Positions 1,758 to 33,155 of a DNA stretch of 64,000 nucleotides are shown piece by piece; position 1 is the stretch's first letter, and every line of letters begins with the position of its first letter. The DNA is taken from positions 1,598 through 65,597 of the forward strand of contig CADCFC010000003.1 in assembly GCA_902800645.1 (NCBI GenBank), given 5' to 3'. Position numbers and translations under genes: made by a program. The DNA comes from an uncultured Erysipelotrichaceae bacterium. Its GTDB lineage: Bacteria; Bacillota_I; Bacilli_A; RFN20; CAG-826. Under the pieces are notes generated by a model. It saw nothing but the letters and a program-made list of their open reading frames with translations, was not told the origin of the DNA and did no database searches.

Positions 1758-2411
1758 TATATGAACAACATGAACTCACTAATGGATTTTTAGTTATTCG
1801 ATTAATAACCAAAAGATATATATTCCATCAGTGTGTTGTTTTGTCACTTATGCCTAAAAGTTTTGATTGTTAAGAATAATCAAATAGTTAAGATAAGTGA
1901 CTCTAAGGAGAGATATCTTTTATATTAAAGAGCAATGTGCACTCATGTTCTTTTATATTTATGATATATCTTCCTTATATAAGGATATTGATATTCTCTA
2001 TGTCTAACCACATCGACCACATGTGGTTATCCATATACATTATTTCTATATCCTTATACTAAAAGTATATTTATATATAATTGCTTTTTCAAAGACTATC
2101 TATAAGGGGTGCTATTTATAAATACATTGTATTTATAGATAAATAATTATTATTTAATAGTCTACTCACTACCAGATGTCTTTAAAGAACTGTAATTCCT
2201 ATTTTTTATTTACTACAAATTATTCCGACTATATCAATCTCAATTAGAGGTGTGTTGAGCTATATACTATATTATAATTAATATAGTGTGTTATTTGATG
2301 ATACACTTATAATAATGCAAAATTGAAAACTAAAGCAAAACTGATACGATTATATCAAAACTGCCTATATTCCAAATCATGAATGAGAACAGACCCACTA
2401 TGATCGCTAAT

Positions 2412-5400
2412 TTAAAATTTCTTCTTGCTGTGTTCCAAAAGTACTCCAATGCTATTGTTGTTTGAAATTTTATCAATAAAGTACTTCTTTTTATTTTCAA
2501 TTAAACTATCATAATTTTCAATGCAATACCTACGAGCTATTAACCTTACACAATTTTTGTTAAATTCGGTATTATTTTTATTGTCTATATAATTAATTAC
2601 GCTATCAATAAATTGGTTTTCCCTAGCAGAAAAAGACATTATCATGAATCTTTGAATATCCTTTACTGGATTAGCGTCGTCTCTTAATCTCTCACACAAT
2701 CTTTCGTTTAACATAGGATTATCTAGCGGCCTAGAACCAACATCATATATACTCAAAACGGTTGCTGTAACATACGATAAGAGCAAATCAAAAAAGCGGC
2801 TTATAAATTTTGTAGAGTATTTCTTATTATTGCTCTGTTCTCTTTGCATTTGAACATACATTTTTTCTAAATCGTCATTTGTAATTGTTATATATTTATC
2901 TACAACAATATTTGGTAGAGTCAGCGCAATTGATGTTAATTTATCTTTGATGCCTTTTGTCAATTTTGATGGAGCTGAATTCAATAAATTTGATACCACT
3001 TGCGACTTATTTAGTAAGTCGATCATTTCTTTCATTGTTTCACTTGCATCCTTTTCATAGAAGAAATCATCAGAATGTTCTAAATAATTTTCGCGTTGAA
3101 TTTGTTCTGCTTTACTGATGTCTTGCTTTATTTCGCTTATTCTATTCTCATCCAGTAGTTCAATTCTTTTTCTTTCGCTTTCAAAATATTTACTGATGGA
3201 ACTAAAATCTTTAAGTTCTAATTTAGCTCCACTAATTTTGTTGTAAAGATCGTTTGTAAAAAAATCAAGAATATCATCATAATTATAGTTATTAGAAATA
3301 TTTAGCAAAATATATGAATTTAATGACGAATAGAGTCCTCTTGAAAGAACTACTTCGATTTCTATTTTGCTGTGCTTATTGTGCAAACAATTTACTATGT
3401 ATTCACTTATAAAATAAGCAAAAATCTTTCTATTGATAAAAGAATAGCTAAAATCTTCGTTTTTCTTTAAAATATCTAAATCAATTAATTTTGAAAGATA
3501 AAGCTCAATCTTTTTTTGATCAAACGGAGGATCGTAAAGAGCAATTTCTCGATCGTAGACATCACAAAAGTCATCCTTGCTAAATGAATTATGTTTTTTC
3601 ATGTAGCAATCATATGCCATGTCACCAAGCATTCTTATGGAGTTAAATCTTCCACAATTAGCAAAACTTTTATCTTTTTCAATCAAATCTAGTTTACTAT
3701 CATATTTTGTTTTTTGATGAGACCAATTTTTATCTACGTTATGAACATCAACATCGAACAACATGCTTGTTGATAGGTCTAAAATACTTTTTGGATCAAT
3801 ACTATTCATCTTGTCCATTTTTTCGATGACTTTATCAAAAGTAGTAATAAAAGTATCTTTTTTAAAATTTTCCAAAATATCCGGTTTAATTTTTGCTGCA
3901 GTATTATAAATCAGTTGTAAAAATTCGTCCCTTTTTGCTTTATAAAGAACGTCAATCGCTAGAACTAAAACATTATCGTTTAAAGCTTCATCATTAGAGA
4001 AAAAATCACAAACGTGAGAATTGGACATTAAAATTATATTCCCAAATAACGTCGTTGAATCCATTATTCTTTTGAAATCAGCAACATCAGAATCGTCAAT
4101 AATAAGGATTCTGGATTTTTCCTCTGTGTTCCAGTACAATTGTTCGGCTGACTGATTGTTATAATTATCTTTTATAATTGAAGACATTAATAATTTAGCG
4201 CTTTTGTTGGTTGACACTTTTGTAAAATTATTCCCAGAAGTAATTAAAGGATTAAAGCCTCTACTGACGAACAAATGAAAAAGTCGATTTGCAAGCACAC
4301 TTTTGCCAGACTCATCATCACCTTTGATGATTACTATTTTCTTTTTCTTGATGGCTTCTACGAATTTGTCAAAAGTTGTTATTTTTTTCTTTTCAAAATT
4401 CAGGTATTTCTTTTCTGTTAAGTTTGGAAACACAAAAATATTAGATATATCGGTAGAGGTGTGACCAAACTTCACAAAGTTATTCTGATCTACTTGTTTC
4501 AAATTAACTCTTAGTTTATCTTTTGTTGCTTCTTTTCTTTTAAAATCTATGGCGTTAATGCCATTATCATTTATTTCTTCGTATACATAATCATTTTCAT
4601 TAAAAAGATATAGTTGATAATACATTTTATTATTATCTATATGAAACAGTGTAAAGCCGGATTGCCCATCGGAATATAATGCCGGCGCAGTAAGTTCAAT
4701 ATACCCAGCACTATTTGCGACAATAGAATCCTCATGAGTGTGTCCAGTAAAAACAACATCAATATTATTTGAAACAATTTGAGACAATTTTCCTTTTGTT
4801 TCTTTTCTTAAATAGGAAAATGGTATGTGCATAATCAAAAAGCTTAACGTTTCGTTTTCTCTCTCAATTTTCAAATGGTCAGGAGCTATATAAATATTTC
4901 CAATATTTGCGGCGTCGTCGCCTTCAGGGCTTGAATATGCTGACAATAATGAATTATTCAATGAATAGACGCTTACCTTATTATTGTCATAGGTAAAATT
5001 GAATTTTAACAAAACGTTATTTATCTGGCTTTTAGATTCGAAATTAGTATTTACGAAATCGTTATAATTATCATTTAAATACATTAATTCATTTATTTTT
5101 TCATCAAAATTGCTATCTTTGATGCTTTTAACGTATTCCGAATCAATTGTCTCTTCATTAAATTTTCTGTCATGGTTTCCTGGACAAATAGCTATTCTAA
5201 TTTTCTTTTTTATTTTTGCCTTAATTTCATTAATAAAATTTGAAAAAACTTCGTAATCTTCTTTTAAGCCACTTTGAACAGCATCTCCAGTGAATAAAAT
5301 TAAAACATTATTAGAAAAGTCATCATTATTAACAATATTTTTTATGCTATCGATTTTTTCATCAAGAAAAGTTAGCCTACGATATAAGTGTAAATCAGTA

Positions 5401-5432
5401 ATATGTAAAACTATTAATTTCATAAAAATCAC
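2412..5432 (-). CDS. Calcineurin-like metallophosphoesterase fused to a P-loop NTPase and a ~500-aa helical C-terminal region (STAND/Avs-like architecture)
   Basis: All five metallophosphoesterase motifs are present in order: HITDLH, FTGDAVQSG, CPGNHDR, LIMHIP, FTGHTHED. Walker A is IIKGDDESGKSVL (~aa 370) and Walker B is RILIIDDSDV (~aa 450); the rest is helical with no motif I recognise. The track start at 5432 is a GTG; the ATG at 5423 (MKLIVLHITDLH) is the more likely start. Confidence 0.75.
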   Translation of the reverse strand: MIFMKLIVLHITDLHLYRRLTFLDEKIDSIKNIVNNDDFSNNVLILFTGDAVQSGLKEDYEVFSNFINEIKAKIKKKIRIAICPGNHDRKFNEETIDSEYVKSIKDSNFDEKINELMYLNDNYNDFVNTNFESKSQINNVLLKFNFTYDNNKVSVYSLNNSLLSAYSSPEGDDAANIGNIYIAPDHLKIERENETLSFLIMHIPFSYLRKETKGKLSQIVSNNIDVVFTGHTHEDSIVANSAGYIELTAPALYSDGQSGFTLFHIDNNKMYYQLYLFNENDYVYEEINDNGINAIDFKRKEATKDKLRVNLKQVDQNNFVKFGHTSTDISNIFVFPNLTEKKYLNFEKKKITTFDKFVEAIKKKKIVIIKGDDESGKSVLANRLFHLFVSRGFNPLITSGNNFTKVSTNKSAKLLMSSIIKDNYNNQSAEQLYWNTEEKSRILIIDDSDVADFKRIMDSTTLFGNIILMSNSHVCDFFSNDEALNDNVLVLAIDVLYKAKRDEFLQLIYNTAAKIKPDILENFKKDTFITTFDKVIEKMDKMNSIDPKSILDLSTSMLFDVDVHNVDKNWSHQKTKYDSKLDLIEKDKSFANCGRFNSIRMLGDMAYDCYMKKHNSFSKDDFCDVYDREIALYDPPFDQKKIELYLSKLIDLDILKKNEDFSYSFINRKIFAYFISEYIVNCLHNKHSKIEIEVVLSRGLYSSLNSYILLNISNNYNYDDILDFFTNDLYNKISGAKLELKDFSSISKYFESERKRIELLDENRISEIKQDISKAEQIQRENYLEHSDDFFYEKDASETMKEMIDLLNKSQVVSNLLNSAPSKLTKGIKDKLTSIALTLPNIVVDKYITITNDDLEKMYVQMQREQSNNKKYSTKFISRFFDLLLSYVTATVLSIYDVGSRPLDNPMLNERLCERLRDDANPVKDIQRFMIMSFSARENQFIDSVINYIDNKNNTEFNKNCVRLIARRYCIENYDSLIENKKKYFIDKISNNNSIGVLLEHSKKKF

Positions 5433-5736
5433 CGCTTATTTAAAAATCTTTCATTAACATAATCAACCATTTATACATCTTTTGTCAATTCTATTGAGAT
5501 GGAATATGTATTTTTCAAAAACATAACTTTTATATGCCTGACTATCGTTTTTTTAACTGATAGTCTTAAATCTAACAATTCACTATTTTTTGACAATGAT
5601 ATGGATATATAAAAAGCTTTATTTTTCAGTTTTCGACACAAAATAGTGACGATGAATAATAAATATAACAATATTTTTATTCTCAATAATTAGTGTTATG
5701 GAAGGTCGAACATTGAATAAAATCTGGCTAAGGAAA

Positions 5737-5837
5737 CTATATAATCTCCCACTTATAGATATCTCGGCAAGTGTTTGTCTCCGCCAACTACTAACCACAT
5801 ACAATCTCTAAGACAAACACGAGGCATGTGTCGTTTT
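5737..5837. repeat. Island repeat, copy 1 (right-hand hairpin half; a degenerate left half may extend back to ~5590)
   Basis: About 85% identical by eye to 17342..17442: ctataWaatctcc...ttatagatatYYcggcaaGTGTTTGTCT-N30-AGACAAACACgag. The 10-bp stem is 5771..5780 / 5811..5820. Confidence 0.7.
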
Positions 5838-5898
5838 TTGCAAACGAAATATATGAATTGTCATTGTAAGTAATAATCAATTATTTTATGATTGATTT

Positions 5899-6882
5899 AT
5901 GGCAGATAAATTATTCTTAACAATCGATGAACAATTGAACCATTTATCATTAGATAAAGAGATTTCTTGTGGTGAAGCGCATAAAGAATCATTACTGAGA
6001 ATTGGTTATTTTAATTTGGTTAATGGTTATAAAACACCATTTACATCTAGTAAGGATGCTCAGGGTAATCATATATACGCTAAAGGGACAACATTAGATG
6101 AGCTGATTAATCTTAAAAACTTTGATGATGACTTGAGATATATTTTGATTAGAACATTAACCAAATGTGAAGAAGAAATAAAAACAATCGCTAGTTATAT
6201 ATTAGAAAAATATAAGCCAGCTAAAATAACTTGGAGAAGTACAAACGCATATAATAAGGCGCTAGATAAATCTAATATTGATAGAATTAATAAGCTTATA
6301 AGCAGAATGCAAAAGCAATTAAACGAAAGAGAAGATTTGGAATATGTAAAGTTTTATAAATCGTCTCATAAAGGAAAAATCCCTATGTGGGTAATTACAA
6401 AAGCAATATATTTTGGAACATTCATTGATTTAATAGAATTATCTAAACCAATAGTCGCAGAATCGCTTTGTGAATTATATAATATTAAAGACATAAACAA
6501 TGATAACGATATTAAATTATTAATTGGTTCACTACACTGGATAAGAATTTTTAGAAACGCCTGTGCACATAATGAAAGAATATATTGCTTAAAAGGTGCA
6601 GGTAGAATTTTTGATATAGAAATAAGAAAATTTGGAAACAGATATATGAGAATCAAAGAAAGAAAACTATTTGATCTTCTTGTCTATCTCCGTTACTACA
6701 TGCAGAAGAAAGAATATCAACAATTAATTAAAAACATCAAAGATAAATTAATAAAACTCCAGTCATCTATATCAGTGTACGCTTTTGATAACATAAGAGG
6801 TGGGATGGGTATTAAAAATTTAGAAGACTTAGATATATTATCTAAAGATGGATTTGATAACGGTTACATGAAATTATATTAA
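5899..6882 (+). CDS. Abi_2 family (AbiD/AbiF-like) abortive-infection protein
   Basis: Family landmarks: RIGYFNLVNGYK (the YYRLSxY-like segment), NLKNFDDDLRYIL, and the hallmark SLHWIRIFRNACAHNERIY (RNxxAHxxR motif). Confidence 0.8.
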   Translation: MADKLFLTIDEQLNHLSLDKEISCGEAHKESLLRIGYFNLVNGYKTPFTSSKDAQGNHIYAKGTTLDELINLKNFDDDLRYILIRTLTKCEEEIKTIASYILEKYKPAKITWRSTNAYNKALDKSNIDRINKLISRMQKQLNEREDLEYVKFYKSSHKGKIPMWVITKAIYFGTFIDLIELSKPIVAESLCELYNIKDINNDNDIKLLIGSLHWIRIFRNACAHNERIYCLKGAGRIFDIEIRKFGNRYMRIKERKLFDLLVYLRYYMQKKEYQQLIKNIKDKLIKLQSSISVYAFDNIRGGMGIKNLEDLDILSKDGFDNGYMKLY

Positions 6883-6960
6883 TTGTACGATTGTAGTTGA
6901 CAATAGGTATTAAATATTGATAGATTATTGATACAAGAGATATCCTTTATAGGATGAAAA

Positions 6961-6985
6961 GGTGCCGAGTAATCGACGCCTTTTT
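6961..6985 (+). terminator. Probable intrinsic terminator of the Abi_2 gene
   Basis: GGTGCCGA-GTAA-TCGACGCC (one mismatch, one wobble) followed by TTTTT, about 80 nt after the stop codon. Confidence 0.45.
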
Positions 6986-7020
6986 AATTTTAAATATTTA
7001 AATTAATGAGATGAACAACG

Positions 7021-7239
7021 CTATTTAAAAAGTTTTGGAGTTATATAAACAAAGAACGTAAAAAATAGTAATTGGTTATAATTCTTACTATTAGAGTGAA
7101 TAACATAAGTTGCTAATACTTTATGATTACCTTTAGTCAATATTCCTCTTTTTAATATTGTTAACCAGAAGATGTAGTCCTCATGACGGTTATATGTTTC
7201 ATCAAAATATAAATCACCTTTAACACTTCTAACATACAT
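7021..7239 (-). pseudogene. C-terminal stump of a family-2 glycosyltransferase
   Basis: DETYNRHEDYIFWLTILKRGILTKGNHKVLATYVIHSNS matches the post-catalytic EDYxxWL...Y(R/V)xxxxS segment of GT2 enzymes. The frame closes with TAA 13 codons upstream of the Met, and no catalytic N-terminal half is present. Confidence 0.55.
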
Positions 7240-7537
7240 AGTGGATAGGCAAGATAAAGGGTTACTCTTAATGAATGTTTATAGTTCGTTACCCATGGCA
7301 TTATAAAATACATGCACGAATTTCAGCTCGTCTTCTATAGCTTATGGAAATTAAAACTTCGTGTTCTATACTAAAAAACTAAGTCGAAAATCAAAATGGT
7401 ATTTTATTAATCGTATTATCGAGATCTTAAAATTTAATTTTTTTAAGAAGATTACATAAATCCTGGGTTTCTTGGGTTAGTGGTGCTATACTCACCGAAC
7501 GATTGTTCCTTCGTCAATCCTAAAAGAATAAATGCTT

Positions 7538-8785
7538 TTAAAATGAAAATGGATTTTTGATTGCACCCTTAGTAACAAACAACAATTCAAATTGTACAAT
7601 ATTGCCAGTCACCTCGAAGATATCATTAACAAAAAATAAACTTAGAAATATGCGATTGTTTTTCTCGTTTGTATAAATCAATTCCTTAACAGCAATGTTC
7701 AAGGTTTCTTTTTTAGTGTTTTCTATAACATAAAATGATAAGGTTGGGTCGTCGTTCATTTGTTCAATTCTTTTTATGGAGTTAATATCAATAATTATTT
7801 CGTTGTTCTTCAATATAGGCCTATTTCTAACAATGCTCATGAGGAATTGGTTGATTGAATTGTGGTTTCTAACAATATATTCTGGCTTTCTCAAAAGCCT
7901 ACCCAGCGCGCGTCTGATTCTTCTTTTATCGTACCAGTAGTTTAAATTTTTTCCATTAATCAAATTTAGTGACTCTTTAATTAAATCCTCACACACTTCT
8001 ATTCCAATCCTATCGTTCATTTCGAATTTAATAGATTTTTCAATCATCTCATAGACTGGTTCCAATTCAATATTGTCACTTGTATAAGATTTAATCTCAA
8101 AATCATAATCAATCCTTTCAATGCCGTCGTTGAATGAATAGTAACTTTTTTTCAATAAGGCATATACTGTTTTTGCAAAAGAATATACATCACTTGCATA
8201 ATATTTGTCGGTGTCTATGATTGTTCTGTCCATGAGTTCTGGTGGAGTAAAAGTATATGAACCCATCCTTGAATGGTTTGTTTCTCCACCCTCTTCACTA
8301 ATCAGTCCAAAATCACACAAAATCAAAACGTACCCATCACCATTATCTTTCTTCTCAAATAAAATATTTGTTGGTTTAATATCGCGATGAGCAAATCCTT
8401 GCGAGTGTATATATTTGATTGCGTCAATTAAGTCTAAACAGTATTGAAGAATAGTCTTATTCGTTGGATTTGAAGCATAAAAATCATTGATCGTTAAATA
8501 TTTTTTCATAACAAAAAATTCAGGACCATTCTTATAAGAGTCAATAAGTTTAGGAATATGAATGTCTTTATTTTGATGTTTCTTTAAAAAATCTATTTCT
8601 TTGTTAAATCTCTCTAATCTGATTGCTCTATCGGTTCTAATTTCGGCTACATTAAAAACCTTCGCGACAATCTCGTTGTTACATGCAACAGATCTAATAA
8701 CGCCATTCCCGCCTTTGGGGTCGTTTTCATTTTTTACAATTTTATATGATTGAATGTATCCGTTTAATATTTCTGAATTATTCAT
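7538..8785 (-). CDS. Hanks-type Ser/Thr protein kinase with an unassigned ~150-aa C-terminal domain
   Basis: G-loop KGGNGVIRSV, catalytic Lys in EIVAKVF, HRDIKPTNILF, CDFGL, TFTPPEL. The start is set at ATG 8785..8783, which overlaps the TAA (8780..8778) of the upstream ORF (ATGAATAA). The track's longer start at 8842 lies inside the upstream gene. Confidence 0.8.
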   Translation of the reverse strand: MNNSEILNGYIQSYKIVKNENDPKGGNGVIRSVACNNEIVAKVFNVAEIRTDRAIRLERFNKEIDFLKKHQNKDIHIPKLIDSYKNGPEFFVMKKYLTINDFYASNPTNKTILQYCLDLIDAIKYIHSQGFAHRDIKPTNILFEKKDNGDGYVLILCDFGLISEEGGETNHSRMGSYTFTPPELMDRTIIDTDKYYASDVYSFAKTVYALLKKSYYSFNDGIERIDYDFEIKSYTSDNIELEPVYEMIEKSIKFEMNDRIGIEVCEDLIKESLNLINGKNLNYWYDKRRIRRALGRLLRKPEYIVRNHNSINQFLMSIVRNRPILKNNEIIIDINSIKRIEQMNDDPTLSFYVIENTKKETLNIAVKELIYTNEKNNRIFLSLFFVNDIFEVTGNIVQFELLFVTKGAIKNPFSF

Positions 8786-11700
8786 TTTCTGCAAAACGTC
8801 TTTCTGATTCTGCATCATGATAAAAACAATCCGCGACATCATTTAAAATCAAGGCGCTTTTTGGAAAGCCTGTTTGTTTTAGCAAGCGTGACTCGCTCTT
8901 ATAATAATTGGCTTTAACAATAAGATCCGACCCATCGCCAATAGTCCTGACTCCAACACCATTCATTATCGAGGTACAATAACTCGATTTTAAATAATTA
9001 TAAGCCTTGTCATTTTGAATGTTTTCAATGAAATCGGCAACCTCTTTAGGAATTAGTAACCCCTCTTCTTTTTTTGAGTAAGCAAAAAGTTTCCCAAGGG
9101 ATGAATAAAATAGATAATCTTTTTCATCGAAGTCTGTTTTATAAATCAATTCACGATACTGATTAACCCATTGTTTAAATAAATTGCCATCAAAAACACC
9201 ATGATAATATCCAGGACAAAATTTTAAATCAAAATATAATAATCCAAACAGTGTTGCTTTTCTTTTAGAATCCTCTTCCTTCTTGATATAAACACTTTCA
9301 ATAAATTCAAAGTATGTCTCAGGGTGTTTACCTAAATGATTGTATAAACAAATCGGTTCGCACTCATGCGTTTTAATAGCCATGATTTCCAGAGAAGCAA
9401 TTTGAAGTTCAATTGTCTCGTTGTTTGTAGAGGAAAATCTTTCATGAAGGATGTCTAACAAAAGTGGAAGATACATTAAGTGACTAGATGAAATTGCACC
9501 TGGCTCTGCTTTTGTCAAGCATTCAAGTACAACATCGCCCAAATCGCTCCCTTTATAATTGTGAGCAAAAAAGTAAAGTGCTTCCAAAATTGGGCTTTTT
9601 AAAGAATTATCTCTTTTAAAAGCATCGTTTAAGCTTTCAATAGCAAATGTAATCGATTTAGGGTTGGAGCAATCAATATTCACATAACTTTTAAAATTTG
9701 ACCAATACAAATCTTGAACGCATCGCGGGAGGACCTGATACATACTAGCAAATTCATCATCATTAAGATTAAAAGGAACAACATACAAATACTCTAAAAG
9801 AGCTGATTCATTATTGGTGGCTTGTACTTGTTTTAAAATTGAATAGTAATTTTTCTTATCGTTGTAAAACAAATCTCTACCTAGATAAGAGAACAAAGCG
9901 CTAACATTAGGTGTCTTAGCTAATAAAACTTCAACAAATTGATTAAGACTTCTATTATTAACAGTCATTTCGAAATCTTTTGCAAAATAATAAAATCTGT
10001 CAAAAACATTCACTTTACCAGCATTTTCGTTAAAATGTTGATACAAATAATCTATCGAGAGTCTGTCTTTTTTAAATTTGGCATACACCGTTTCTAAGAA
10101 TTGTTCATTATTTTTTTCTTGAAGCGCATATGAATAATTATTGCTATCATAAACGACAGGATTCGGGTTTTTAATTTCAAAGGATGTAAAATAATCTATA
10201 TATTCGATTTCAGGATTATCCAATTTAATTTTTGGAATTAACAACTCAAAGTCCTTGATAACTTCTTCAGGCGCAGCCCACCCTGCATTAGCAAATTCTC
10301 TATTCTTATGTATAAATGATTTAATTCTATTTATAACAATCATTTTATCGTAATCATTAGCTTCCTTACATACAGACATTATCTTTTTAATAACCATTTC
10401 TCTTGCTTTATTGCCGAAATATACAAAAGAGTGTTTGTCTATAATCTCAGCAATCTGAGTGCAATTATTTGCATGCTCCAAAACAATATCATTGTAGAAA
10501 CTATACCTTTCAGAAATAACTTTGTTTGTTAGTTGTTGCTCTGGCATTTTAAATGTCAAATAGACTGGATGATTAAACGGCATCGCCGTATCTCCACCAC
10601 CCGAATATAAAAGATCTATGAACAAATTAAACGCCGCATTTGAATCAATTTTAAAAAGATGCCTGCAAAGTTCAGTTCTTTCTTCTTCTGTAGCAGGGGT
10701 TGCTTGAAACCACGCCAAGAAAAAAACATGTAAAGTAGACTTAGGCGAATTTGAAATCTGGTAGGAGAGATTAAGTTGATATAAAGAAAAGAGTGCTTCA
10801 ACGGCTTTTTTTCTTTCGCTATCGAAAAAGAGGATCTTTTCCAAACACCACAGAACATTTGTGTACCAATTTTTTCCAAATATAAAATCAGGTTTGGAAG
10901 ATTTGTTTAAAAATAGTTTGCATAGCCCTGACTTGTTTTTTATATCAGATGATATTTTGTCTATAGTTAAAGAAGCATTAATTTCAACAATCTTATCTAA
11001 ATAATCAGAAAGATACCTATAATGTTGATCTGTTTGATTCTCATCGATCCATTTAAAAAAAGTGTCAACAAGATTGGCTGTTTGATTTTTAAACTTTCCT
11101 TTTTCGTTCAAAAAGATTAACGAAATAAAAATGCTCTCGATAAGAGAAGGAGAATAAGAACTTTCGCTGTTTTTAAAGACTAAAGGACTATCTCCGTATT
11201 TATCCGGAAGTGTACATAAAACATTTTTTGCCAATTCAAAAAACTTATCTGCAATAGAAGATGAAATATCAGAATAAAATGATTCGAATGAGCCTTCATA
11301 ATCAAGAACGATGAGATTTGTTTGGTGAAAGTCTACTATTTCCTTTGCGTATGGAGTTTCCGATAAAGATGGCGGTTGTATCTCCTCAATATAATCACTA
11401 ATTCCAAGGCCACTTATCTTTTCGATAAAATCCGCATCAAGAGGATTATTAACTTGGAACTTTCTTATTAGTAAAGAAGTTGATAAAACACGGGACTTAA
11501 TTGACGACTTAATTCTCGCTTCAAATGTATCGGTTTCTTTGCATAGTATTCTGTAGAGATTTGGAAAAGTATTTTTTGATCTCCTCATCAAAGATGAAAT
11601 ATCATCACTCTTAAAATCACTCTTCTTCAATGCTTCTCTTGTTGATTTTGCAAGTCTAGGCCTCAAAGTGATTTGAACACCAGATACTTTCCATTTAGAG

Positions 11701-12482: not shown

Positions 12483-12499
12483 GTTAATTACCTAGTTTG

Positions 12500-12508
12500 A
12501 TTATATCA
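12500..12508 (-). promoter_or_regulatory. Possible extended -10 element (TGATATAAT) for the giant-protein/kinase operon
   Basis: The minus strand reads tTGATATAATcaaactAGGTaattaacATG. This would give a very short leader, and the -35 is poor. Confidence 0.3.
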
Positions 12509-12808
12509 AAATATCGTGGATGTATAAATATATCAAAATTAGGGAAAACTATATATAGAAATGATAATTGGAATTTTAAAGACTACTTTTAACCTTAAAA
12601 AACATAAAAGATTCATTTTATTGTATAAGTCATTATTATCACTTTACTTATTTTTTTATATAGCAAAAATCCATCTTACTTTTATCACAGATATACATTC
12701 ATCATATTTATTTATAGGTAAATTGACATCAACTTTGAAAGAATATCAAACTTAAAACGATATTTGTCCCCTTAAAGAAATAAAATCGAAAGACAAATGT
12801 ATTATGAA

Positions 12809-12847
12809 TCCTAAGTCTAGCGCGTCTGCAAGTTCCGCCACGCAAGC
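12809..12847 (-). pseudogene. Orphan 5' half of a tRNA-Leu(UAG)-like gene (acceptor strand, D-arm, 5' anticodon stem and loop only)
   Basis: Minus strand: GCTTGCG-TG-GCG-GAACTTGCAGA-CGC-G-CTAGA-CTTAGGA. This is colinear with the intact tRNA-Leu at 39550..39634 (GCGGATA-TG-GTG-GAATTGGTAGA-CAC-G-CAAGA-CTTAGAA). After the anticodon loop the sequence (TTCAT...) no longer pairs, and there is no variable arm, T-arm or CCA. Confidence 0.55.
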
Positions 12848-13011
12848 AAGATATTAAACGCGCAAACCTAATACCTTTCTAATTTATATCTTGAAAGATA
12901 AAATTAGCAAATGTTTTCTATAATTATATATAAAATATTGTTATAAAAAAACTCGGGTATCTAATCCCAAGTCGTTTATTCAACAATAAAATACAAGGAT
13001 ATAAATAAGCA

Positions 13012-13188
13012 CTAAAAATTAACAAACTTGCTCAACTCATCAATTGTGATTTGTTCTTCTTTATTATTGGTCGCACTTAAAACAACTGTGCCACTTTTTG
13101 TATATGTTAATTTAACGTACTTAGCGTTATTAGTTTTTTCTTCTTCTGCAGCACTTGGATTACTCAAAAGTTTGTCGATCTCGGACAT
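13012..13188 (-). CDS. 58-aa small hydrophilic protein, third gene of the AbiH-like operon
   Basis: Below the track's size cutoff. AGGAGTAAAAAA-ATG lies 24 nt after the stop of the 2-TM gene. Hand translation: MSEIDKLLSNPSAAEEEKTNNAKYVKLTYTKSGTVVLSATNNKEEQITIDELSKFVNF*. Confidence 0.45.
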   Translation of the reverse strand: MSEIDKLLSNPSAAEEEKTNNAKYVKLTYTKSGTVVLSATNNKEEQITIDELSKFVNF

Positions 13189-13212
13189 TTTTTTACTCCT
13201 AGAAATATAATA

Positions 13213-14061
13213 TCATTTCTTGTAATGTTCGCATAGCATTAATAGGCTTGGATAAGAAACATTACCTTCTTTTTTATAAATATCATAATAGAACAACTTA
13301 ACAACTTCTATAATGATATCTTTGAATTGAGCGTCCACCAATTCTCTGTCTAATAAATTGTTCATATATTGAATGGCCAAGCTCTCAAAGAAATTCAAAA
13401 CCTTTATTCTTCTTTCATGATAAATCCTTAACACTTGGGAACAACCAATCGTGTTTTTGTCTAATTTATATCCTTTTTCACCATTATAAACTTTGCTGAT
13501 GTGTTCAGAAAAACTATTACTCACAACATTAGGTTCAATAGTTAAAAACAAAATAGTCTTTTTAATTAAAAGGTTTTGATATTCATCTTCGTTTTCAAAT
13601 TCAGATTCAAACTTTTTAATTGCTTCTTCTTGAATCTCTAATGATGGCTCAACTTTTAATCTCGCCTTTTTAAGCGAACCCCTAACTTCAACTTGAACAT
13701 TTTTTGTGAAGCGATAAAGAGGGGTTGTACTGTAGTTAAATTCTTTGATTGCTTCAATAACTGCACCAAGCTTAGTTTCTTTCTCCTTCGCTCTTCGAGA
13801 ACGTTCATTAAATAAATACGTTCCAACCGCATTTAATAAAATACCGGCAGAAAATAGAGATCCAGCAATACCAATTGCAATCGTATGTAGTTCCTTTGTG
13901 TTAAAGTTCTTATTTTCTAGGAAAAAGAAAATCAATAAAACAACAATTGCAATAACACCAATAACGAGAAATGCTCCAACAAACACATAGAAAACAATTG
14001 TTGGAATCTTAATCTCGCGTTTATTTGTATCATAATTCTTTTTGTTATCTTTCATATACAT
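13213..14061 (-). CDS. Two-TM membrane protein with a cytoplasmic C-terminal domain (DUF4760-like by eye)
   Basis: Two hydrophobic helices: IPTIVFYVFVGAFLVIGVIAIVVLLIFFFL and TIAIGIAGSLFSAGILLNAVGTYLF. The C-terminal LNFFESLAIQYMNNLLDRELVDAQF...YPSLLMLCEHY resembles my memory of DUF4760-type proteins. It lies 43 nt downstream of the AbiH-like gene. Confidence 0.6.
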   Translation of the reverse strand: MYMKDNKKNYDTNKREIKIPTIVFYVFVGAFLVIGVIAIVVLLIFFFLENKNFNTKELHTIAIGIAGSLFSAGILLNAVGTYLFNERSRRAKEKETKLGAVIEAIKEFNYSTTPLYRFTKNVQVEVRGSLKKARLKVEPSLEIQEEAIKKFESEFENEDEYQNLLIKKTILFLTIEPNVVSNSFSEHISKVYNGEKGYKLDKNTIGCSQVLRIYHERRIKVLNFFESLAIQYMNNLLDRELVDAQFKDIIIEVVKLFYYDIYKKEGNVSYPSLLMLCEHYKK

Positions 14062-14104
14062 TATTATCTTATAACTTTATTCTACTGTCTATGTTAAATG
14101 GGGA

Positions 14105-15271
14105 TTAAATTTTTCTAATTTGTAGCCTGTTTTCCAATTGTAATCTGCTGATAATTGTAGTGACTTTTTCTTCACTTCCTGATTTTTTAGCGTAGTCGGT
14201 CAGTAATTTATAGACAGAAGAAACAAAAGCTGCTCTAATATTGGCGTTTTCTTCTTCGGTTTCTTTGTATTCTGTATAGCAAAATATAAGCGATATACCA
14301 CTATTGTAAATGTCATAATAATCAAACAACGAATGAAAATAAGAATAGTCCTGTGGGCCAAGAGAATGACCATAAATTTTGATTTTATTAATATTTTCTT
14401 TTTTAGGCAATTCATACGGCTTGTCGGATAGATTCATTTTTTGCCATGCTTTGCTCATTTTAATGCTCAAAGTTTCGTTGTCAGAAACATCACCTGAATC
14501 AAACCCAATAATAATTTCATTTTCTAAACTTCCGTGTATATTGTAATAATTTCTTTTGAATTCATGACTTTCCGAATCAACAAACCATTTCAATGGATTT
14601 GTGTAATTGAATGAAATAATTGAAGTTGGCTCAGAATAAAAGTTAATTAATTTGCTTAGCAGTTTTTTACAATTGTTGGTGTATTCAGTATCACTGACAA
14701 CACAATTACTAATATACTCCTTAAAATCGGCTTCAAACTTTAATAGTTCTAAATACAAATATGAGTATATATTAAAACCAGATACTTCTATTTTTATTTT
14801 ACGGAAATGTTTTTTGATTGAAACTAATTGACTACGTTCCCCAACAATGTATCCTGACATTCTTGTAGAAAACAAGGAATTCAAATAATCTAAGTAATTT
14901 GAGCAATTGATAGGGAGGTTTATATTCATCCATTTATCATCTTTTTTATTAAATGTAACAATCTTTTTAACGAAACTTTCAATATCCATCCAACGCGGAT
15001 TACTAATAGGAATTTTTTCAACAATTTGATTAAACTCGCTATCATAATAAGTTTCGTCGTAAAAAGCAAAATAAAACAACAAATACCAAATATTATCGCA
15101 CACAACGTTTAAATAAGTGTCAGCAGCGGATTTAATAGTTGAAATTTTTGTTTTAAAAAAATCATTAAAACTACTTTTAAGGCCACAGTTTAAATCAAAA
15201 CCATTGCCGATAACCAATAATGTTCCAATTATTTCATTTTCGCTTGGGCTAATTCTATTTTTTGTATTCAT
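14105..15271 (-). CDS. AbiH-like abortive-infection protein
   Basis: The N-terminal LLVIGNGFDLNCGLKSSFNDFF matches the AbiH signature (IIGNGFDLxHGLxTxYxDF). The C-terminal IKIYGHSLGPQDYSYFHSLF matches the second AbiH block (GHSLxxxDxxYF). Confidence 0.75.
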   Translation of the reverse strand: MNTKNRISPSENEIIGTLLVIGNGFDLNCGLKSSFNDFFKTKISTIKSAADTYLNVVCDNIWYLLFYFAFYDETYYDSEFNQIVEKIPISNPRWMDIESFVKKIVTFNKKDDKWMNINLPINCSNYLDYLNSLFSTRMSGYIVGERSQLVSIKKHFRKIKIEVSGFNIYSYLYLELLKFEADFKEYISNCVVSDTEYTNNCKKLLSKLINFYSEPTSIISFNYTNPLKWFVDSESHEFKRNYYNIHGSLENEIIIGFDSGDVSDNETLSIKMSKAWQKMNLSDKPYELPKKENINKIKIYGHSLGPQDYSYFHSLFDYYDIYNSGISLIFCYTEYKETEEENANIRAAFVSSVYKLLTDYAKKSGSEEKVTTIISRLQLENRLQIRKI

Positions 15272-15790
15272 TTCGTCATCATTATATATTACATGGCACT
15301 AGAATCATATTAATCTTAGTCATAAGATGGGCAAATTTATCAGTCCTCTAAAGTTTTTCATTACACAAAACAAAACTTAATAGTGCTAAATTATTTTTGA
15401 TTTAGTGGCATTCTTTTTCTTTGATTCTATCAGGCATAAGTATTTTATCTTTCTTGTATTTCTCTTATAAAAATTAAAGCATAACGAGTCACCCATTAAT
15501 AAATATTTAGGGACGACATTAATGTTATTTTTTAGAACTACGTAAAATAAGTCTTTCGTTTTCTTTTGCCATAAAACGCCCATCCAATTACATAGAATCA
15601 ACTTCTAATCCAATTTGTTCCTTGGGTTTTATGATAAATGTAATGCATATATCTAATTAGTTTTAATTTGTTTCTAGACTTACTGTTTTCTAATATACAA
15701 TTGATGTCATATCCGTATCTTTAAAGCAATTCCGACCGAAACAAATATTATTATTTTTTTCTTCAATTGATTTATAAATATATAGGAAAA

Positions 15791-15947
15791 AATAGATTCA
15801 TAATTGATAAGAATCAGCCATATAAATATAACATCGCCATCATCATTCTTGGTGAACTATTTAATGAAGGAATAATAGATATTTTTGATATAGCGGAATC
15901 TCTTATTAAATTAACAAAACTATATAATCTCCCAGTAATAGATATTT
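15791..15947. repeat. Island repeat, copy 2 (left-hand 157 nt only)
   Basis: Colinear without indels with 17213..17369 (about 85% identity by eye): aatagattcataattgataaRaatcagccatat...gatatttttgatatag...ctcttattaaatt... It diverges just before the hairpin half. Confidence 0.7.
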
Positions 15948-16208
15948 ATAAAAAAGAAAGTAATTCCACTACTTCAAAGCGGTTGCCATGGAAGGAACTT
16001 CCTGGGTAATTGCGCCTCCAAAAACGTTTAGCAAAATTTCTCATACATTAAAATAAAAAACAATAATTCTTTCATGGCAATCTAGTCATCTCCTTTCCTC
16101 TACTACCATCAAAAAATCCAACATAAAAATGTAGGTATTACCAAAAGCATTAATTTTTGATTTTTTATTCAGTAACGAAAAATAGTTTCCGACTGTAATA
16201 ATACAAAG

Positions 16209-17132
16209 CTAATCCTTTGACAAAATAAATGATTTGTTTGTTTTCTTTACTATAAAATTATTTGTCTTCTCACAGCAAACAAATCCGTCACTCCCAAAAG
16301 AAATTAGTTGAAATTTCATTTCTAGTTTTGGCTGTACCATGAAAAAATTTTGAAATGCAATAATTATATTAGGAATATTATCAACAAGAAATTTTTCCCA
16401 TTTAGCTGCCTCCTGACGATAAATGATTGATTTCAATGTTGAATCAATAGGGTTGCCGTTTGACATTGAACCACCACCAGCGTTAGTTAAAACCAAGCCA
16501 TTATCAAGAACGGCAAAACCATTGATATTACATTCTCTCAGGGCCTTTATGTCATTATTAGAAAGTTCTTTAGAAGCAACGCCATTAACAATAAATGGGC
16601 TTAATAAGTTTGGCCAATTCCGATATATTATTTCCAAATAATCCTTGTCCGTAAAGCAATGAATATCATTATGATCTTTTACGGTAATGAAATATACAAA
16701 ATAATCTGTAACCCATGCGATAATCAAATGGTTGCTTCTTTGAACTCTGCCATCAGTCCTATATCTCCTGGACAAATGAAAATGGAATAAATTCCAATCA
16801 TTCAGGATACCATCGTTGTAAGTAACGTCATCATACTTTTCAGTTAAAAAGGGTTTTAAATTGTCTCCGTTAATTATTTTTATTTCAAGTTCACTCAATG
16901 CCAGCTCATATCCAGACGGACAGACAAATGAATCAGACTTTTTAACTTGTCTAGGCATTGGTTTTATTGTTTTCTTCATCATCTTAAACATTTCAATAGG
17001 TGCATTTCGATTTACTGTTGGTGAAAACCCATTATTAACAATATTGCTTTTAGCAATTTTTTCACAATCTTTTTCGAAATCAATTTCAGCAATCCATAAA
17101 TATTTTTCAGGAATTTTGGCTTTGTAAATCAT
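16209..17132 (-). CDS. Hypothetical 307-aa protein (orphan cassette between two repeat copies)
   Basis: Clean ORF with no motif I can assign. It contains WNLFHFHLSRRYRTDGRVQRSNHLIIAWV. It is flanked by repeat copy 3 upstream and copy 2 downstream. Confidence 0.55.
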   Translation of the reverse strand: MIYKAKIPEKYLWIAEIDFEKDCEKIAKSNIVNNGFSPTVNRNAPIEMFKMMKKTIKPMPRQVKKSDSFVCPSGYELALSELEIKIINGDNLKPFLTEKYDDVTYNDGILNDWNLFHFHLSRRYRTDGRVQRSNHLIIAWVTDYFVYFITVKDHNDIHCFTDKDYLEIIYRNWPNLLSPFIVNGVASKELSNNDIKALRECNINGFAVLDNGLVLTNAGGGSMSNGNPIDSTLKSIIYRQEAAKWEKFLVDNIPNIIIAFQNFFMVQPKLEMKFQLISFGSDGFVCCEKTNNFIVKKTNKSFILSKD

Positions 17133-17212
17133 GAGTTAATTATAGGATAAATAAACTTGCAATATATCTTTTTTGATAAACTTATAGATATATGAGAAAG
17201 CAAAGAGAGATG

Positions 17213-17442
17213 AATAGATTCATAATTGATAAAAATCAGCCATATGGATATAACATCGCCATCATTATTTTTGGTAAACTACGTAATGAAGTAATGATAG
17301 ATATTTTTGATATAGTAAAAGCTCTTATTAAATTTAGGATACTATAAAATCTCCAAGTTATAGATATTCCGGCAAGTGTTTGTCTACGCCAACTACTAGC
17401 CATGAACAACCTCTAGGACAAACACGAGCCATATATCATTTT
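17213..17442. repeat. Island repeat, copy 3 (full length, ~230 nt)
   Basis: The left half matches copy 2 and the right half matches copy 1. The stem is GTGTTTGTC (17376..17384) / GACAAACAC (17417..17425) with a ~32-nt loop. Confidence 0.7.
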
Positions 17443-17553
17443 AGAATCCAACTGACATCCTAACGAATTCTAATGAATCCAAAGAATAAAATGCTTAACA
17501 TTAATCTCTTGATAACAAATAAATTATTATGGAGAGCATTACTCGACAATGTT

Positions 17554-19809
17554 TTAAAGACTATCTACTCTATCTTTGAATGATTTAATATCTCTCAACG
17601 AAATAGAAAGATATGGGGAAATCATCATTGTTGTAGCATGATCGATTGCGTTATACATGACTGAAAAATCATTATGAATTTGTTGGCATCTCTCAACAAA
17701 TGCATTTAATCCATGAACAGGTGTAGATTTATTTAACGAAGAAATAGAACTAATAATCGATTGGAGTCCACACGCTTTTTTCATTTTTACATCCATTATG
17801 CTTGAGGAAAAACAAGAATAACCTTTATCCACCACTTTTTTCTCAAACTCAAATTTGATAGTTTCAATCATTAATGCCTTTAAGAAGATATAGTTTATAA
17901 CATCAGAATATTTGTTGCTTCTAAACGAATTAAAAGGTCTTTTTGCAACATTCTCCCTAAATGTTACCATTAATCTAGAATCTCCATTGTAAGCTGATGG
18001 CACATTTTTATTACTATCGTGTGTCCTTACATAAAGCTGAGCCAAAGATGCTATTGTCAAAGTGCTTGTTCTATCCATATTTTTTCCCGCAAAATAATTA
18101 TTTGAACGATAATGTTCAAAACACGAAACAATCTTATCTTTAACATCATTACTCCAACCTACATCAATTTTTCCTGTTTTCGTTACAATTTCTAGATATT
18201 TCAACTTCTTAATTGTTTCTGTGTTTATGTTTCTTAGCGGAAGCGACATCGCGCAAAACATTAAATCAGGATCATAAGGGTACGTTGTCTTTTTGGTGGT
18301 AATAAAATCAACAAGAAAATACAAATCGTTTTTTCCAATCTTTTTTACCTCTTTGCTTGTGCATTTTTGATGCCAGTAATTATATGAGGAATCATTATAA
18401 ACATAATCTGGATCGTCTAAATAAAAGATGGCATCACATTTTTGAATCTCTGAGAGGTTATAAACGCATTCAAAATCATTAGTAAGCATATACCAATTAT
18501 GCAAACGCCTAAGTTTTAAAATCTTTTTTATATATTTAATGGCTAATAACTTAGTGTAATCATCATAGCTATCTATCGGATCATCAAGAATTAAAACGTC
18601 TGTGTCAGAAAAATATATTTCTGCGTAAAGCGTAACTAAAACCAATCTCTTAAATTCGCTTGTAGACAAGAATTCTTTGGCAGATTGTTTTTTGTTGTTG
18701 ATTTTAAAAACAAAGCCTTTCTTTCCATCAAGAGGTAAAATTTTAATATCATCATCAAGATGAATAATAGATCTAATCTCATTTATTACAAACAAATTAA
18801 AATTATTAATTTTTTTCAAATCTTTATTAGTTGTTCCATCTATTTCACCGATTTTGCTTTCAAGTTTATTTATTTTATCTAAACAACCAAAAATAGTGTC
18901 ATCTTCTTCTGGAATATTAATTTCTCCAATTTTATTAGACATCAAATATACATTGTCCATACATAATTGTATGTATAGCTTAAGAGCGATAAATAATTTT
19001 CTTTTATTGTTATTTGATTCTATACTATCAAATATTTTCTTAATTATTGGATTATCAGTTTTTTCCTTGAATAGAATCAGCCTTTTAACAAGGCTGTTCA
19101 TTTCTCTAACAGCGTTTTCATTTTTTATTATTTTTAATTGAGAATAGTGATTTTCAATATGTCTTATCAAAGAATTATAGTTTCTATACCTTTTTCCACA
19201 TAAAAGACATGTCTTAAAATGATTTAACTTTGAATAAAGTAGTATTGAAAAAACACTATCTTTAATCTCTTGATCTACATATAAATCATCTAGTTCGTCT
19301 TTCTCGATTTTGTCATAAGCATCATATCTATCAATAAACGATTTAATATCTAAATAAAGAGGATAATCTAAAGAAACATCCATATTTTCAATCGCACTAT
19401 CATCATAGTCTGCATATTTTTCCCTGATCCGACTTACATTCTTTTTAATGAGTTTAGGTTTATCACTTGCTTTGGTAACGTGATAAAACATTAAAACAAA
19501 ACTATTTTTAACAGCGGCCGTTAATGATTTTACCCCTAGCCCATTAACAAATGGTTTTGCTTTTTCGATTGACTCTTCGATGTGCTTCTTTTTTGTTTGC
19601 ATCTTCGCTGTTGAGCCAAGAAAAAATTCATCATCAAATTCATCAATTAAATCTTCAAGACTTTTGTTAGTAAATAATTTTACTTTTTTCCCATCTTTTC
19701 TTAGTTCATCTGCCATTTTAACGGAATTTGTAGTTTTTCCAAATCCATTAGGGGCATATATGATTGTTTTATTCCATTCTGTGAGAAAAGAGTTGCTATA
19801 TGGGTACAT
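17554..19809 (-). CDS. AAA_13-type ABC/SMC-like ATPase with a coiled-coil insert and CxxC, plus a ~340-aa C-terminal domain (RloC/PrrC-like architecture)
   Basis: Walker A is IIYAPNGFGKTT. A long helical insert contains CLLCGKRY. There is an ABC-signature-like LSTSEFKRLVLVTL, then Walker B/D-loop DVLILDDPIDSYDD. The C-terminal third is unassigned. Confidence 0.65.
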   Translation of the reverse strand: MYPYSNSFLTEWNKTIIYAPNGFGKTTNSVKMADELRKDGKKVKLFTNKSLEDLIDEFDDEFFLGSTAKMQTKKKHIEESIEKAKPFVNGLGVKSLTAAVKNSFVLMFYHVTKASDKPKLIKKNVSRIREKYADYDDSAIENMDVSLDYPLYLDIKSFIDRYDAYDKIEKDELDDLYVDQEIKDSVFSILLYSKLNHFKTCLLCGKRYRNYNSLIRHIENHYSQLKIIKNENAVREMNSLVKRLILFKEKTDNPIIKKIFDSIESNNNKRKLFIALKLYIQLCMDNVYLMSNKIGEINIPEEDDTIFGCLDKINKLESKIGEIDGTTNKDLKKINNFNLFVINEIRSIIHLDDDIKILPLDGKKGFVFKINNKKQSAKEFLSTSEFKRLVLVTLYAEIYFSDTDVLILDDPIDSYDDYTKLLAIKYIKKILKLRRLHNWYMLTNDFECVYNLSEIQKCDAIFYLDDPDYVYNDSSYNYWHQKCTSKEVKKIGKNDLYFLVDFITTKKTTYPYDPDLMFCAMSLPLRNINTETIKKLKYLEIVTKTGKIDVGWSNDVKDKIVSCFEHYRSNNYFAGKNMDRTSTLTIASLAQLYVRTHDSNKNVPSAYNGDSRLMVTFRENVAKRPFNSFRSNKYSDVINYIFLKALMIETIKFEFEKKVVDKGYSCFSSSIMDVKMKKACGLQSIISSISSLNKSTPVHGLNAFVERCQQIHNDFSVMYNAIDHATTMMISPYLSISLRDIKSFKDRVDSL

Positions 19810-20003
19810 AATATTGTTGTCTCCACTTCTTATATGATTATATCTTTAATTTGTTTGCTTAAGAAAGAGATATCTAAGGATGATTTTGGAAATTAATTCC
19901 TTATACCATTCAAAAAGAAAAAAGATTTGTCGAACCTCTTGAAACTAGAAAGAACGGGCAAATCAATAATTATAGATAGTCGGTTATTATAAATAAGTAA
20001 ATT

Positions 20004-22883: not shown

Positions 22884-22984
22884 ATATTGAATTATACAAT
22901 AACCTTCTTTTTTTTAAAACAAATTATCTTTAAGATAAATGATATTTGAAATAATAATTAATGTATGATTAAATCAAATGTAGA

Positions 22985-24091: not shown

Positions 24092-24092
24092 T

Positions 24093-33152: not shown

Positions 33153-33155
33153 ATT

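Follow-up and report, generated by a model that had tools for sequence, protein, structure and literature searches.

Background

How a row of unrelated candidate defence genes comes to be stacked in a bacterial chromosome, whether through the single arrival of a mobile element or through the serial gain of separate cassettes, is the question raised by the locus described here. It occupies positions 2412-19809 of a window of 64,000 nucleotides (nt), by which we mean the whole stretch of DNA analysed and to which all coordinates without a prefix refer; the window corresponds to bases 1598-65597 of contig C3 (CADCFC010000003.1) of genome bin G000 (assembly GCA_902800645.1; 1.31 Mb, 60 contigs, 90% complete, 33.8% GC), from an uncultured Erysipelotrichaceae bacterium. 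Translation table 11 yields long open frames across the window. An earlier note on this DNA had recognized six defence-like units lying back to back between a surface-protein gene and a polysaccharide locus, and the list of open reading frames (ORFs) bears out that arrangement, with every named feature in its place. Taken along the minus strand, starting at the polysaccharide locus and ending at the surface-protein gene, the units are a 751-amino-acid (aa) ATPase gene, a gene for a 307-aa protein, an AbiH operon, a gene for a 1234-aa protein with a kinase gene, an AbiD gene (on the other strand) and a gene similar to the DS-8 system. Known anti-phage families (DS-8-like, AbiD, AbiH and PD-T4-7), together with a defence-type kinase, are thereby clustered in 17.4 kb. 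We consider it very probable that this region is a chromosomal anti-phage defence island in a lineage-wide hotspot, situated at the distal end of the polysaccharide locus and composed of stacked units that were exchanged independently of each other.

Exchange of single cassettes between genomes

Partner contigs were found through near-identical island proteins in the public protein collection; in what follows, G-numbers denote genomes (G041 being GCA_045113315.1) and L-numbers denote other contigs or stretches of contigs. Five blocks of the island have copies elsewhere that are 91-95.5% identical in nucleotide sequence, sharply bounded, and set among unrelated flanks and different neighbours. 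The DS-8-like gene (2356-5622) has a 95.5% identical copy over 3269 nt in L067, where it lies directly past the 3' end of a GT2 glycosyltransferase gene and is followed by AAA_14/DUF4143, radical-SAM and DUF3800 genes. The AbiD block (5739-6992) is 92.3% identical over 1254 nt to G041, inside an island of ~25 kb with AEP-TOTE helicase, CBASS, AAA_21, HD, PIF1 and AbiH genes. The 1234-aa gene and its kinase (7482-12808) recur in L060 (93.1% over 5342 nt) between a GT2 stump and a Fic gene, with SIR2 and Abi_2 further on. The 751-aa gene (17503-19867) is found in L028 (91.3%), after a Flg_new surface protein and before a GmrSD-type gene pair, while its 3' end, together with a repeat copy (copy C, described below) and the PD-T4-7 gene (16179-18036), recurs in L070 (94.5%), where a 157-aa gene and an SMC_N ATPase gene come next.

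The boundaries of these cassettes are directly visible in the alignments: in all five blocks homology ends abruptly 30-330 nt outside the coding sequence, and the shared blocks enclose an upstream -10-like box and a downstream terminator-like end. Since the other genes common to the same partners are only 69-81% identical, the cassettes are much younger than their host genomes. The earlier note had favoured serial gain of cassettes in a hotspot over a single mobile element, and this proposal is upheld both by the separate recurrence of the five blocks with other neighbours and by the different defence genes that other genomes hold at the same position.

Recurrence of the hotspot and accessory status of its cargo

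The order of rplM/rpsI with a tRNA cluster, the polysaccharide locus and then defence genes holds in G000, G041, G006 and G016, with different cargo in each. In G041, the tRNA cluster, the polysaccharide locus and a GT2 gene precede AEP-TOTE, CBASS, AAA_21, AbiD, HD, PIF1 and AbiH genes; in G006, rplM/rpsI, the tRNAs and the polysaccharide locus are followed by a hairpin fragment and an AAA_13 gene at the contig end; and in G016 two AbiL genes, AbiE and a PrimPol-helicase gene lie at the distal polysaccharide-locus end, ~30 kb from rplM. Other cargo was found on the contigs L028 (GmrSD), L030 (Abi_2 and a methyltransferase), L060 (Fic, SIR2 and Abi_2) and L062 (DUF3800, AAA_21 and a methyltransferase); in L030 and L062, which carry distant homologues of the 751-aa and 1234-aa proteins respectively, polysaccharide genes are again followed by defence-type genes. 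Different defence genes stand at this position in at least five genomes and several metagenomic contigs.

The accessory status of the island, for which conserved gene order in relatives would have been damaging, was confirmed in four genomes of the same genus (G001, G002, G009 and G022), in which the rplM/rpsI block, the initiating transferase gene and the Polysacc_synt_2 dehydratase gene are conserved and none of nine island proteins gave a tblastn match in the syntenic ~40 kb on the island side of the Polysacc_synt_2 gene. Abi_2 is present in 5 of the 23 genus genomes.

In the windowed GC analysis that the earlier note had suggested, the island (29.3% GC) lay in the lowest 0.3% of 17.4-kb genome windows, below the other 99.7% (genome median 33.8%). 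The claim that it is more AT-rich than the genes to its right stands only for genes beyond ~36 kb, since the polysaccharide locus, at 30.5% GC, is nearly as AT-rich; the compositional contrast consequently marks the whole variable region of 2.4-35 kb and not the defence part alone. The long spacers with little coding content were recovered as described, with a coding fraction of 82% in the island vs 99% in the polysaccharide locus.

On the right, the island is flanked by this locus (20004..35051, minus strand; Pfam), with four GT4 genes, a hexapeptide transferase, a GT2 gene, a Big_2 protein, a pyruvyl transferase, a flippase, the initiating transferase and the Polysacc_synt_2 dehydratase, only the last two of which are conserved in relatives. 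An exact look-up of its first glycosyltransferase found no other contig. On the left lies surfA (2..1693, minus strand), a surface-protein gene with Big_2 domains (Pfam, 2e-14) and a C-terminal membrane anchor; it runs off the window, and the full ORF of ~1040 aa was taken from contig C3, which ends ~160 nt beyond the surfA stop codon.

Some further matches concern the surroundings of the hotspot. The closest relative within the genus, G002, encodes, ~30 kb to the island side of the anchor gene, an 802-aa protein (L014:6596-9004; G002:C1 ~188.6-191.0 kb) that has a PHP domain and matches SMC_N/AAA ATPases weakly; it may be the hotspot occupant of that genome. The window gene 41545-42000, which lies beside rplM/rpsI, has a homologue (67% aa identity) within the island region of G016 (L072:1416-1904; G016:C1:139415-139903), a position indicating that the surroundings of the hotspot have been rearranged. 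Between the 751-aa gene and the first glycosyltransferase, the spacer (19859-19981) matches two intergenic sites of the polysaccharide region in G022 at 73-74%, and the surfA start region (1623-1712) matches three polysaccharide-region sites in G009 at 75-79%, presumably through signal-peptide or leader sequences shared by paralogous surface proteins.

Units related to known defence families

The earlier note had regarded all six units as candidate defence modules; four of them match known defence families in Pfam, NCBIfam or PADLOC, and the remaining two are candidates by context. Cassette 1 (2356..5622, minus strand) consists of ORF 2412-5432, called 2412-5423 in public assemblies, whose product carries a metallophosphatase domain (Pfam Metallophos, 1.9e-15; motifs DLH, GD, GNHD and GHTHED read in the sequence), a STAND/NACHT-type P-loop NTPase (nSTAND3, weak at 1.8e-5; Walker A GDDESGKS, Walker B ILIIDD) and a helical C-terminal half. 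It also matches PADLOC PDC-S60 (1.3e-21) and the NCBIfam model DS8_antiphage (NF053861, 6.4e-70). DS-8 is an experimentally validated single-protein system of a metallophosphatase and a NACHT module from DefensePredictor, in which defence needs both activities (PMC13092281). The protein encoded here resembles it in length (1003-1006 aa vs a model of 994 positions) and in the order of its domains, with an N-terminal metallophosphatase retaining its catalytic motifs ahead of the P-loop NTPase, but it differs in that the match spans residues 10-472 only and is not full-length, leaving the C-terminal half unmatched, and scores 236 bits, far under the curated cut-off of 790. Because of this low score and the unmatched half, it is best described, on its sequence features, as a distant DS-8 relative with a different presumed sensor.

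Cassette 2 (5739..6992, plus strand) has its own upstream region and a terminator-like 3' end, and its ORF 5899-6882 is an AbiD/Abi_2 abortive-infection gene (Pfam Abi_2, PF07751, 1.9e-36, 126.5 bits vs a gathering score of 25.6; PADLOC AbiD, 8e-37). Cassette 4 (13012..15271, minus strand) is an operon of AbiH (14105-15271; Pfam PF14253, 5.6e-19, 69.7 bits vs a gathering score of 30.9; PADLOC, 1.3e-6), a 282-aa protein with two transmembrane segments (13213-14061) and a 58-aa ORF (13012-13188), for which Pfam gave nothing useful at E<=10. This AbiH gene set is also present in contigs of the same strain. The 307-aa protein of cassette 5 (16179..17132, minus strand; ORF 16209-17132), previously taken for an orphan, turned out to be a PD-T4-7 homologue, matching the PADLOC profile at 6.2e-32 over nearly its full length (residues 17-297 vs profile positions 8-301 of 337), a match judged without a curated cut-off, which the library lacks.

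Two candidate defence systems

Cassette 3 (7482..12808, minus strand) pairs a helical protein of 1234 aa (ORF 8778-12482) with a Hanks-type Ser/Thr kinase (ORF 7538-8842, or an alternative 415-aa form starting at 8785) whose frame overlaps the 3' end of its partner. The kinase matches Pfam Pkinase (3e-25), contains the motifs HRDIKPTN and DFG, and finds its top PADLOC matches, at the level of the kinase domain, in mad6, MkoA and PD-T4-6. In contrast to lone-acting kinases of the PD-T4-6/Stk2 type, it is always translationally coupled to the 1234-aa partner. The large protein itself has no family match, with nothing useful in Pfam at E<=10, and the genome-contig collection holds only one distant relative of it. 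The pairing with overlapping frames was nevertheless kept in four contexts, at 93.1% identity in L060, 42% in L062 and 24% (large protein) or 31% (kinase) in L064, and the annotated neighbours in these contexts include defence-type genes. As the most distant homologues carry trypsin-like domains, the kept pairing suggests that the 1234-aa protein may serve as a large sensor or scaffold with exchangeable effectors. We regard the two genes as a candidate two-gene defence system with a putative defensive role. The most divergent pair, on a metagenome-assembled genome labelled uncultured Clostridium sp. (L064:9317-14519), comprises the trypsin-type 24% homologue and then the overlapping kinase (E=1e-36 for the latter), with a tRNA-Leu(CAA) gene 2.2 kb downstream.

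The 751-aa protein of cassette 6 (17503..19867, minus strand; ORF 17554-19809) had been labelled an AAA_13 ATPase. The label did not survive as a family assignment, there being no Pfam AAA_13 (PF13166) match even at E<=10, and searches against PDB sequences returned zinc-finger noise only; the AAA_13-like layout, however, held up. The protein contains an N-terminal P-loop, a CxxC within a long coiled-coil or helical insertion, an ABC-signature-like LSTSEF, the Walker B motif LILDDPIDSYDD and a helical C-terminal domain of 340 aa; its predicted head is of the ABC/SMC type and is interrupted by a coiled coil whose CxxC resembles a zinc hook. Its AlphaFold model, built from 16 homologues, has a predicted local distance difference test score of 86.5, and Foldseek against the PDB placed the heads of Lamassu LmuB, cohesin, condensin and Rad50 as best matches with a probability of ~1. 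Alignment by hhalign with the true AAA_13 protein at the equivalent position of G006 gave E=5e-4 and a probability of 31%, spanning the C-lobe of the ATPase and the C-terminal domain. On the strength of the model, the fold matches and hhalign, we call it a predicted SMC/Rad50-like ABC ATPase of AAA_13-like layout.

In its Walker A, CxxC coiled-coil insertion, signature-like motif, Walker B and extra C-terminal domain the protein resembles both the AAA_13 ATPases of the RloC/PrrC type and LmuB. It differs from the former in the missing Pfam match and in a C-terminal domain that matches no known nuclease (no comparison aimed at PrrC or RloC was made), and from Lamassu in that its gene stands alone, without LmuA- or LmuC-like partners. 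Only 17 clusters among 5.8 billion proteins belong to this rare family, and none of them contains a Pfam domain; C201 and C204 and the C-terminal R526, H566, R618, E656 and H724 are invariant. Homologues recur beside polysaccharide and defence genes in L028 and L030, and the gene may be considered a candidate defence gene whose defensive role, judged from sequence and context, is putative.

Remnants of earlier recombination

Between the cassettes lie remnants of other genes. The GT2 stump (ORF 7021-7239) reported in the earlier note is real and is common to three other contigs: the remnant (7069..7339, minus strand; TuaG, 3e-4; blastx) corresponds to residues ~117-212 of a 248-aa glycosyltransferase whose gene is intact in G041, G022 and L065, and the same truncated form occurs in L028/L034 and L060 at 85-86% blastn identity. 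It lies upstream of the 1234-aa/kinase cassette in L060 and downstream of it in the window. Pfam gave nothing useful for the stump at E<=10, and it has no paralogue in this genome. A second remnant (15553..15696, minus strand), found by blastn to the G041 and G022 GT2 genes and by blastx, covers residues ~202-249 of the same glycosyltransferase family. Remnant 1 is of the L065/L034 allele type (78% aa identity), whereas remnant 2 shows the opposite preference, being 71% identical to the G041 allele vs 38% to the L065 type, and the two therefore derive from different sources; their permuted order and different alleles led us to reject the idea that an insertion had cut a single gene into these two pieces. 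The GT2 stop codon lies just ahead of the first cassette in G041, L060 and L067, and we take the GT2 3' end to be a recombination anchor.

The tRNA half noted earlier is likewise genuine. It is the 5' half of a tRNA-Leu(UAG) gene (12809..12847, minus strand), broken off behind the anticodon loop, precisely at the start of the 93%-conserved cassette 3, and 32 of 33 bases match the tRNA-Leu of G041 and G002. It resembles this allele of relatives and not the resident tRNA-Leu(UAG). The latter (39550-39634) is only ~81% identical to that of G041 (L051:1357-1441) and has the opposite orientation relative to tRNA-Thr/Val.

The repeat family, too, proved real and confined to the island, although not the anonymous repeat it had been taken for: it consists of decayed copies of a small gene, hereafter the junction gene, plus a hairpin. 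Copy A (5731..5837, plus strand) is a 3' remnant of the junction gene followed by the hairpin GGCAAGTGTTTGTC...GACAAACACGAGGC; this copy moves together with the AbiD cassette, the same arrangement stands upstream of AbiD in G041, and it is within such a junction-gene remnant that the 92% identity to G041 sets in. Copy B (15767..16009, plus strand) is an 80-aa ORF with a C-terminus of the 77-aa type whose usual start region is deleted, and is probably decayed. Copy C (17213..17442, plus strand) has a premature stop and the hairpin. Junction-gene stretches were delimited at 15767-16009, 17192-17347 and 5698-5811, and elsewhere at L038:2376-2576 and L065:8001-8234. Confinement to the island within this genome led us to reject a genome-wide miniature inverted-repeat transposable element.

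The intact junction gene encodes 66-77 aa and is represented by 162 protein clusters of 64-94% identity, many of which come from short contigs, just as a repeat would. More than one copy lies in the G041 island, 5 of the 23 genus genomes contain the gene, and the placeable copies (G000, G006, G009, G016 and G041) all lie on the polysaccharide side of the rplM/tRNA anchor. The protein has no Pfam family match and is predicted to form a two-helix hairpin; a helix-turn-helix regulator was considered and rejected, the model showing only two helices. Since it always points away from the cassette beside it, or in L065 from the terminal GT2 gene, the junction gene could be more than a passive patch of homology, acting as a shared regulator or a recombination helper. 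A further junction element, J2 (2174..2314, strand unassigned), lies downstream of cassette 1; blastn detected copies (78-80% over 70-89 nt) at two cassette 3' ends in G041, behind the CBASS cyclase and AEP-TOTE genes, and in G006 where the polysaccharide locus meets the island.

Mobility genes and alternative origins

Hairpin-bearing copies that share one orientation, are conserved across species and lie between cassettes invite comparison with an integron-like site-specific system, in which the hairpins would be attC-like and a recombinase acting in trans (Xer-like), or the junction protein as accessory factor, would move the cassettes. The sharp cassette ends without flanking homology and the unusually conserved, multi-copy junction gene fit this explanation, but much else does not. 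The 60-nt hairpin is limited to copies A and C, hence to two island junctions and nowhere else in the genome, and an exact-pattern scan of the genome-contig collection gave nothing; it has no compensatory changes in its support, no Rfam match across 1-26 kb at E<=1 and no adjacent integrase. The repeats are 60-170 nt away from the cassette ends, where no common motif was seen; most junction-gene copies are decayed, and the remnants of GT2 and tRNA genes look like scars of ordinary recombination. Integrons, or clusters of attC sites lacking integron-integrases (CALINs), are recognized by intI and/or attC at every junction, a pattern absent from this island, and we judge such a system improbable here.

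Even less can be said for the whole 17 kb having arrived once as one mobile element (an integrative island, a remnant of an integrative and conjugative element or a composite transposon), with the tRNA-Leu half as its attachment scar and an ISL3 insertion sequence (IS) as one end. The same-strain 112-kb assembly (100% identical) does run past surfA into an ISL3 transposase gene (PF01610, 2e-41; L035:17006-18259) ~4 kb left of the first cassette. That copy, however, lies outside the island and brackets nothing; a 99-nt IS end is found at three contig ends of the bin (the C3:1-160 region, C8:1-99 and C34:11618-11716), so that the IS is simply multi-copy, which explains the assembly break, and the transposase gene itself is absent from G000. 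A tRNA fragment within the region would suit an integrative element, yet the piece is an internal 5' half and not a 3' repeat at the edge. Low GC throughout and an identical arrangement in 8 contigs from different samples would also fit one arrival. The polysaccharide locus, though, has equally low GC, and the close relatives differ from cassette to cassette and stand among other neighbours.

Nor were the marks of an integrative element, an integrase at or within the edge and direct repeats at both ends, found. The earlier note had reported no integrase, transposase or recombinase, and none was detected in the window: contig C3 has no Phage_integrase match, no flanking direct repeats bracket the island, and neither a relaxase nor a second IS copy accompanies it. 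The only tyrosine recombinases of the genome are two Xer-like enzymes of ~300 aa, both on other contigs (no genome-wide search took in serine recombinases or further transposase families). So far, apart from same-strain assemblies, no genome has yielded two or more of the cassettes inside common outer boundaries. Single arrival is accordingly, in our view, very improbable.

Least credible of all is a non-immune role in which the units would be accessory functions that regulate or modify the adjacent genes for surface polysaccharides and surface protein (through, say, a kinase acting on export or a phosphoesterase on a cell-wall polymer), as the adjoining polysaccharide locus and surface-protein gene, the GT2 remnants among the genes and the frequent regulation of capsule synthesis by bacterial Ser/Thr and Tyr kinases might suggest, because four units score strongly against defence families, the Hanks-type kinase has defence kinases as its best PADLOC matches and is always paired with the 1234-aa protein near defence genes, whatever polysaccharide genes adjoin, and no unit is conserved with polysaccharide genes in relatives.

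A model for cassette turnover

The reading of the region as a defence island of independently exchanged units has its own difficulties. The cassette ends are offset from the repeats, and the joins examined revealed neither a common motif nor microhomology, so that the recombination route is one that we infer. Except for G041, the 91-95% copies sit on unbinned metagenomic contigs, whose hosts may be close or distant relatives of this strain. Alone among the units, the AbiH operon has no close copy elsewhere in the public protein collection, and its mobility is therefore presumptive; two of the six units match no known defence family. The hotspot is anchored on its right side, and its left side ends at surfA and the ISL3 copy at a contig end. 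All these points weigh against that reading.

Both the mechanism of recombination and the anti-phage activity of the units in this host are what we infer from these observations, as follows. The island would be a stack of self-contained transcription units, each with a promoter, one to three genes and a terminator-like end, and each passed horizontally between related species independently of the others. In a hotspot that would need no recombinase of its own, incoming DNA may recombine through short conserved anchors, namely the 3' end of the terminal GT2 gene, the highly conserved junction gene (66-77 aa) together with the hairpin, and short 3' elements, and the far side of that DNA would join illegitimately, in a homology-facilitated illegitimate recombination. 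Repeated rounds would displace, truncate and erode older anchors, which would explain why GT2 remnants of two alleles, three junction-gene copies in decay and half a tRNA-Leu gene are found here among long spacers. The units themselves would act as independent layers of abortive-infection or sensor-effector immunity: a DS-8-like STAND protein with its metallophosphatase as putative effector, AbiD, AbiH with a membrane partner, the PD-T4-7 homologue, the 1234-aa sensor-like protein with its partner kinase and the SMC-like ATPase with a presumed C-terminal effector. That such recombinase-free, self-promoted cassettes dock throughout the genus at portable anchors formed by the GT2 3' end and the junction gene, and that two undescribed immune modules are present here, is a broader generalization that we put forward tentatively and regard as rather doubtful.

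Surface polysaccharides are phage receptors or shields, and an island at the edge of the locus that makes them places both layers of resistance in one hypervariable stretch, such that one recombination event can change both. Single cassettes traceable between genomes at base level offer a testable picture of defence turnover in small genomes without prophage or integrative-element hotspots. The island also nominates two rare families, the 1234-aa protein with its kinase and the 751-aa ATPase, as possible new defence systems, and the conserved small junction gene as a further candidate for study.

Comparison with known systems

Capsule and O-antigen switching proceeds through homologous recombination in conserved flanking genes, such as dexB/aliA in pneumococcus and galF/gnd in Enterobacteriaceae. 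The island shares with it the edge-anchored replacement of a variable block and the persistence of gene remnants from different alleles; here, in contrast, the cargo consists of intracellular immunity genes, a conserved anchor is seen on one side only and the blocks pile up serially. Sedentary chromosomal integron arrays and CALINs are likewise rows of co-oriented exchangeable cassettes, and a hairpin-bearing element lies between some of the cassettes here, but the island has no intI, its recurring element is a decayed protein gene plus hairpin present at some junctions only, and its cassettes carry their own promoters and do not end at the repeats.

The closest parallel is with the chromosomal defence islands reportedly described by Makarova et al. 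in 2011, in that unrelated anti-phage systems, known and unknown genes together, cluster at a conserved position with variable content and low GC. Defence hotspots between core genes are also known from the E. coli pangenome and, as core defence hotspots, from Pseudomonas aeruginosa, and most described hotspots either harbour recognisable mobile elements (prophages, satellites or integrative islands) or are sites flanked by two housekeeping genes. The present hotspot differs in lying at the distal end of a polysaccharide locus, a setting for which we found little literature, in having no mobility gene inside, and in that the exchanged unit can be resolved to single cassettes running from promoter to terminator, with scars of anchor genes. 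Defence islands and hotspots being well established, this region is a variant of that known type.

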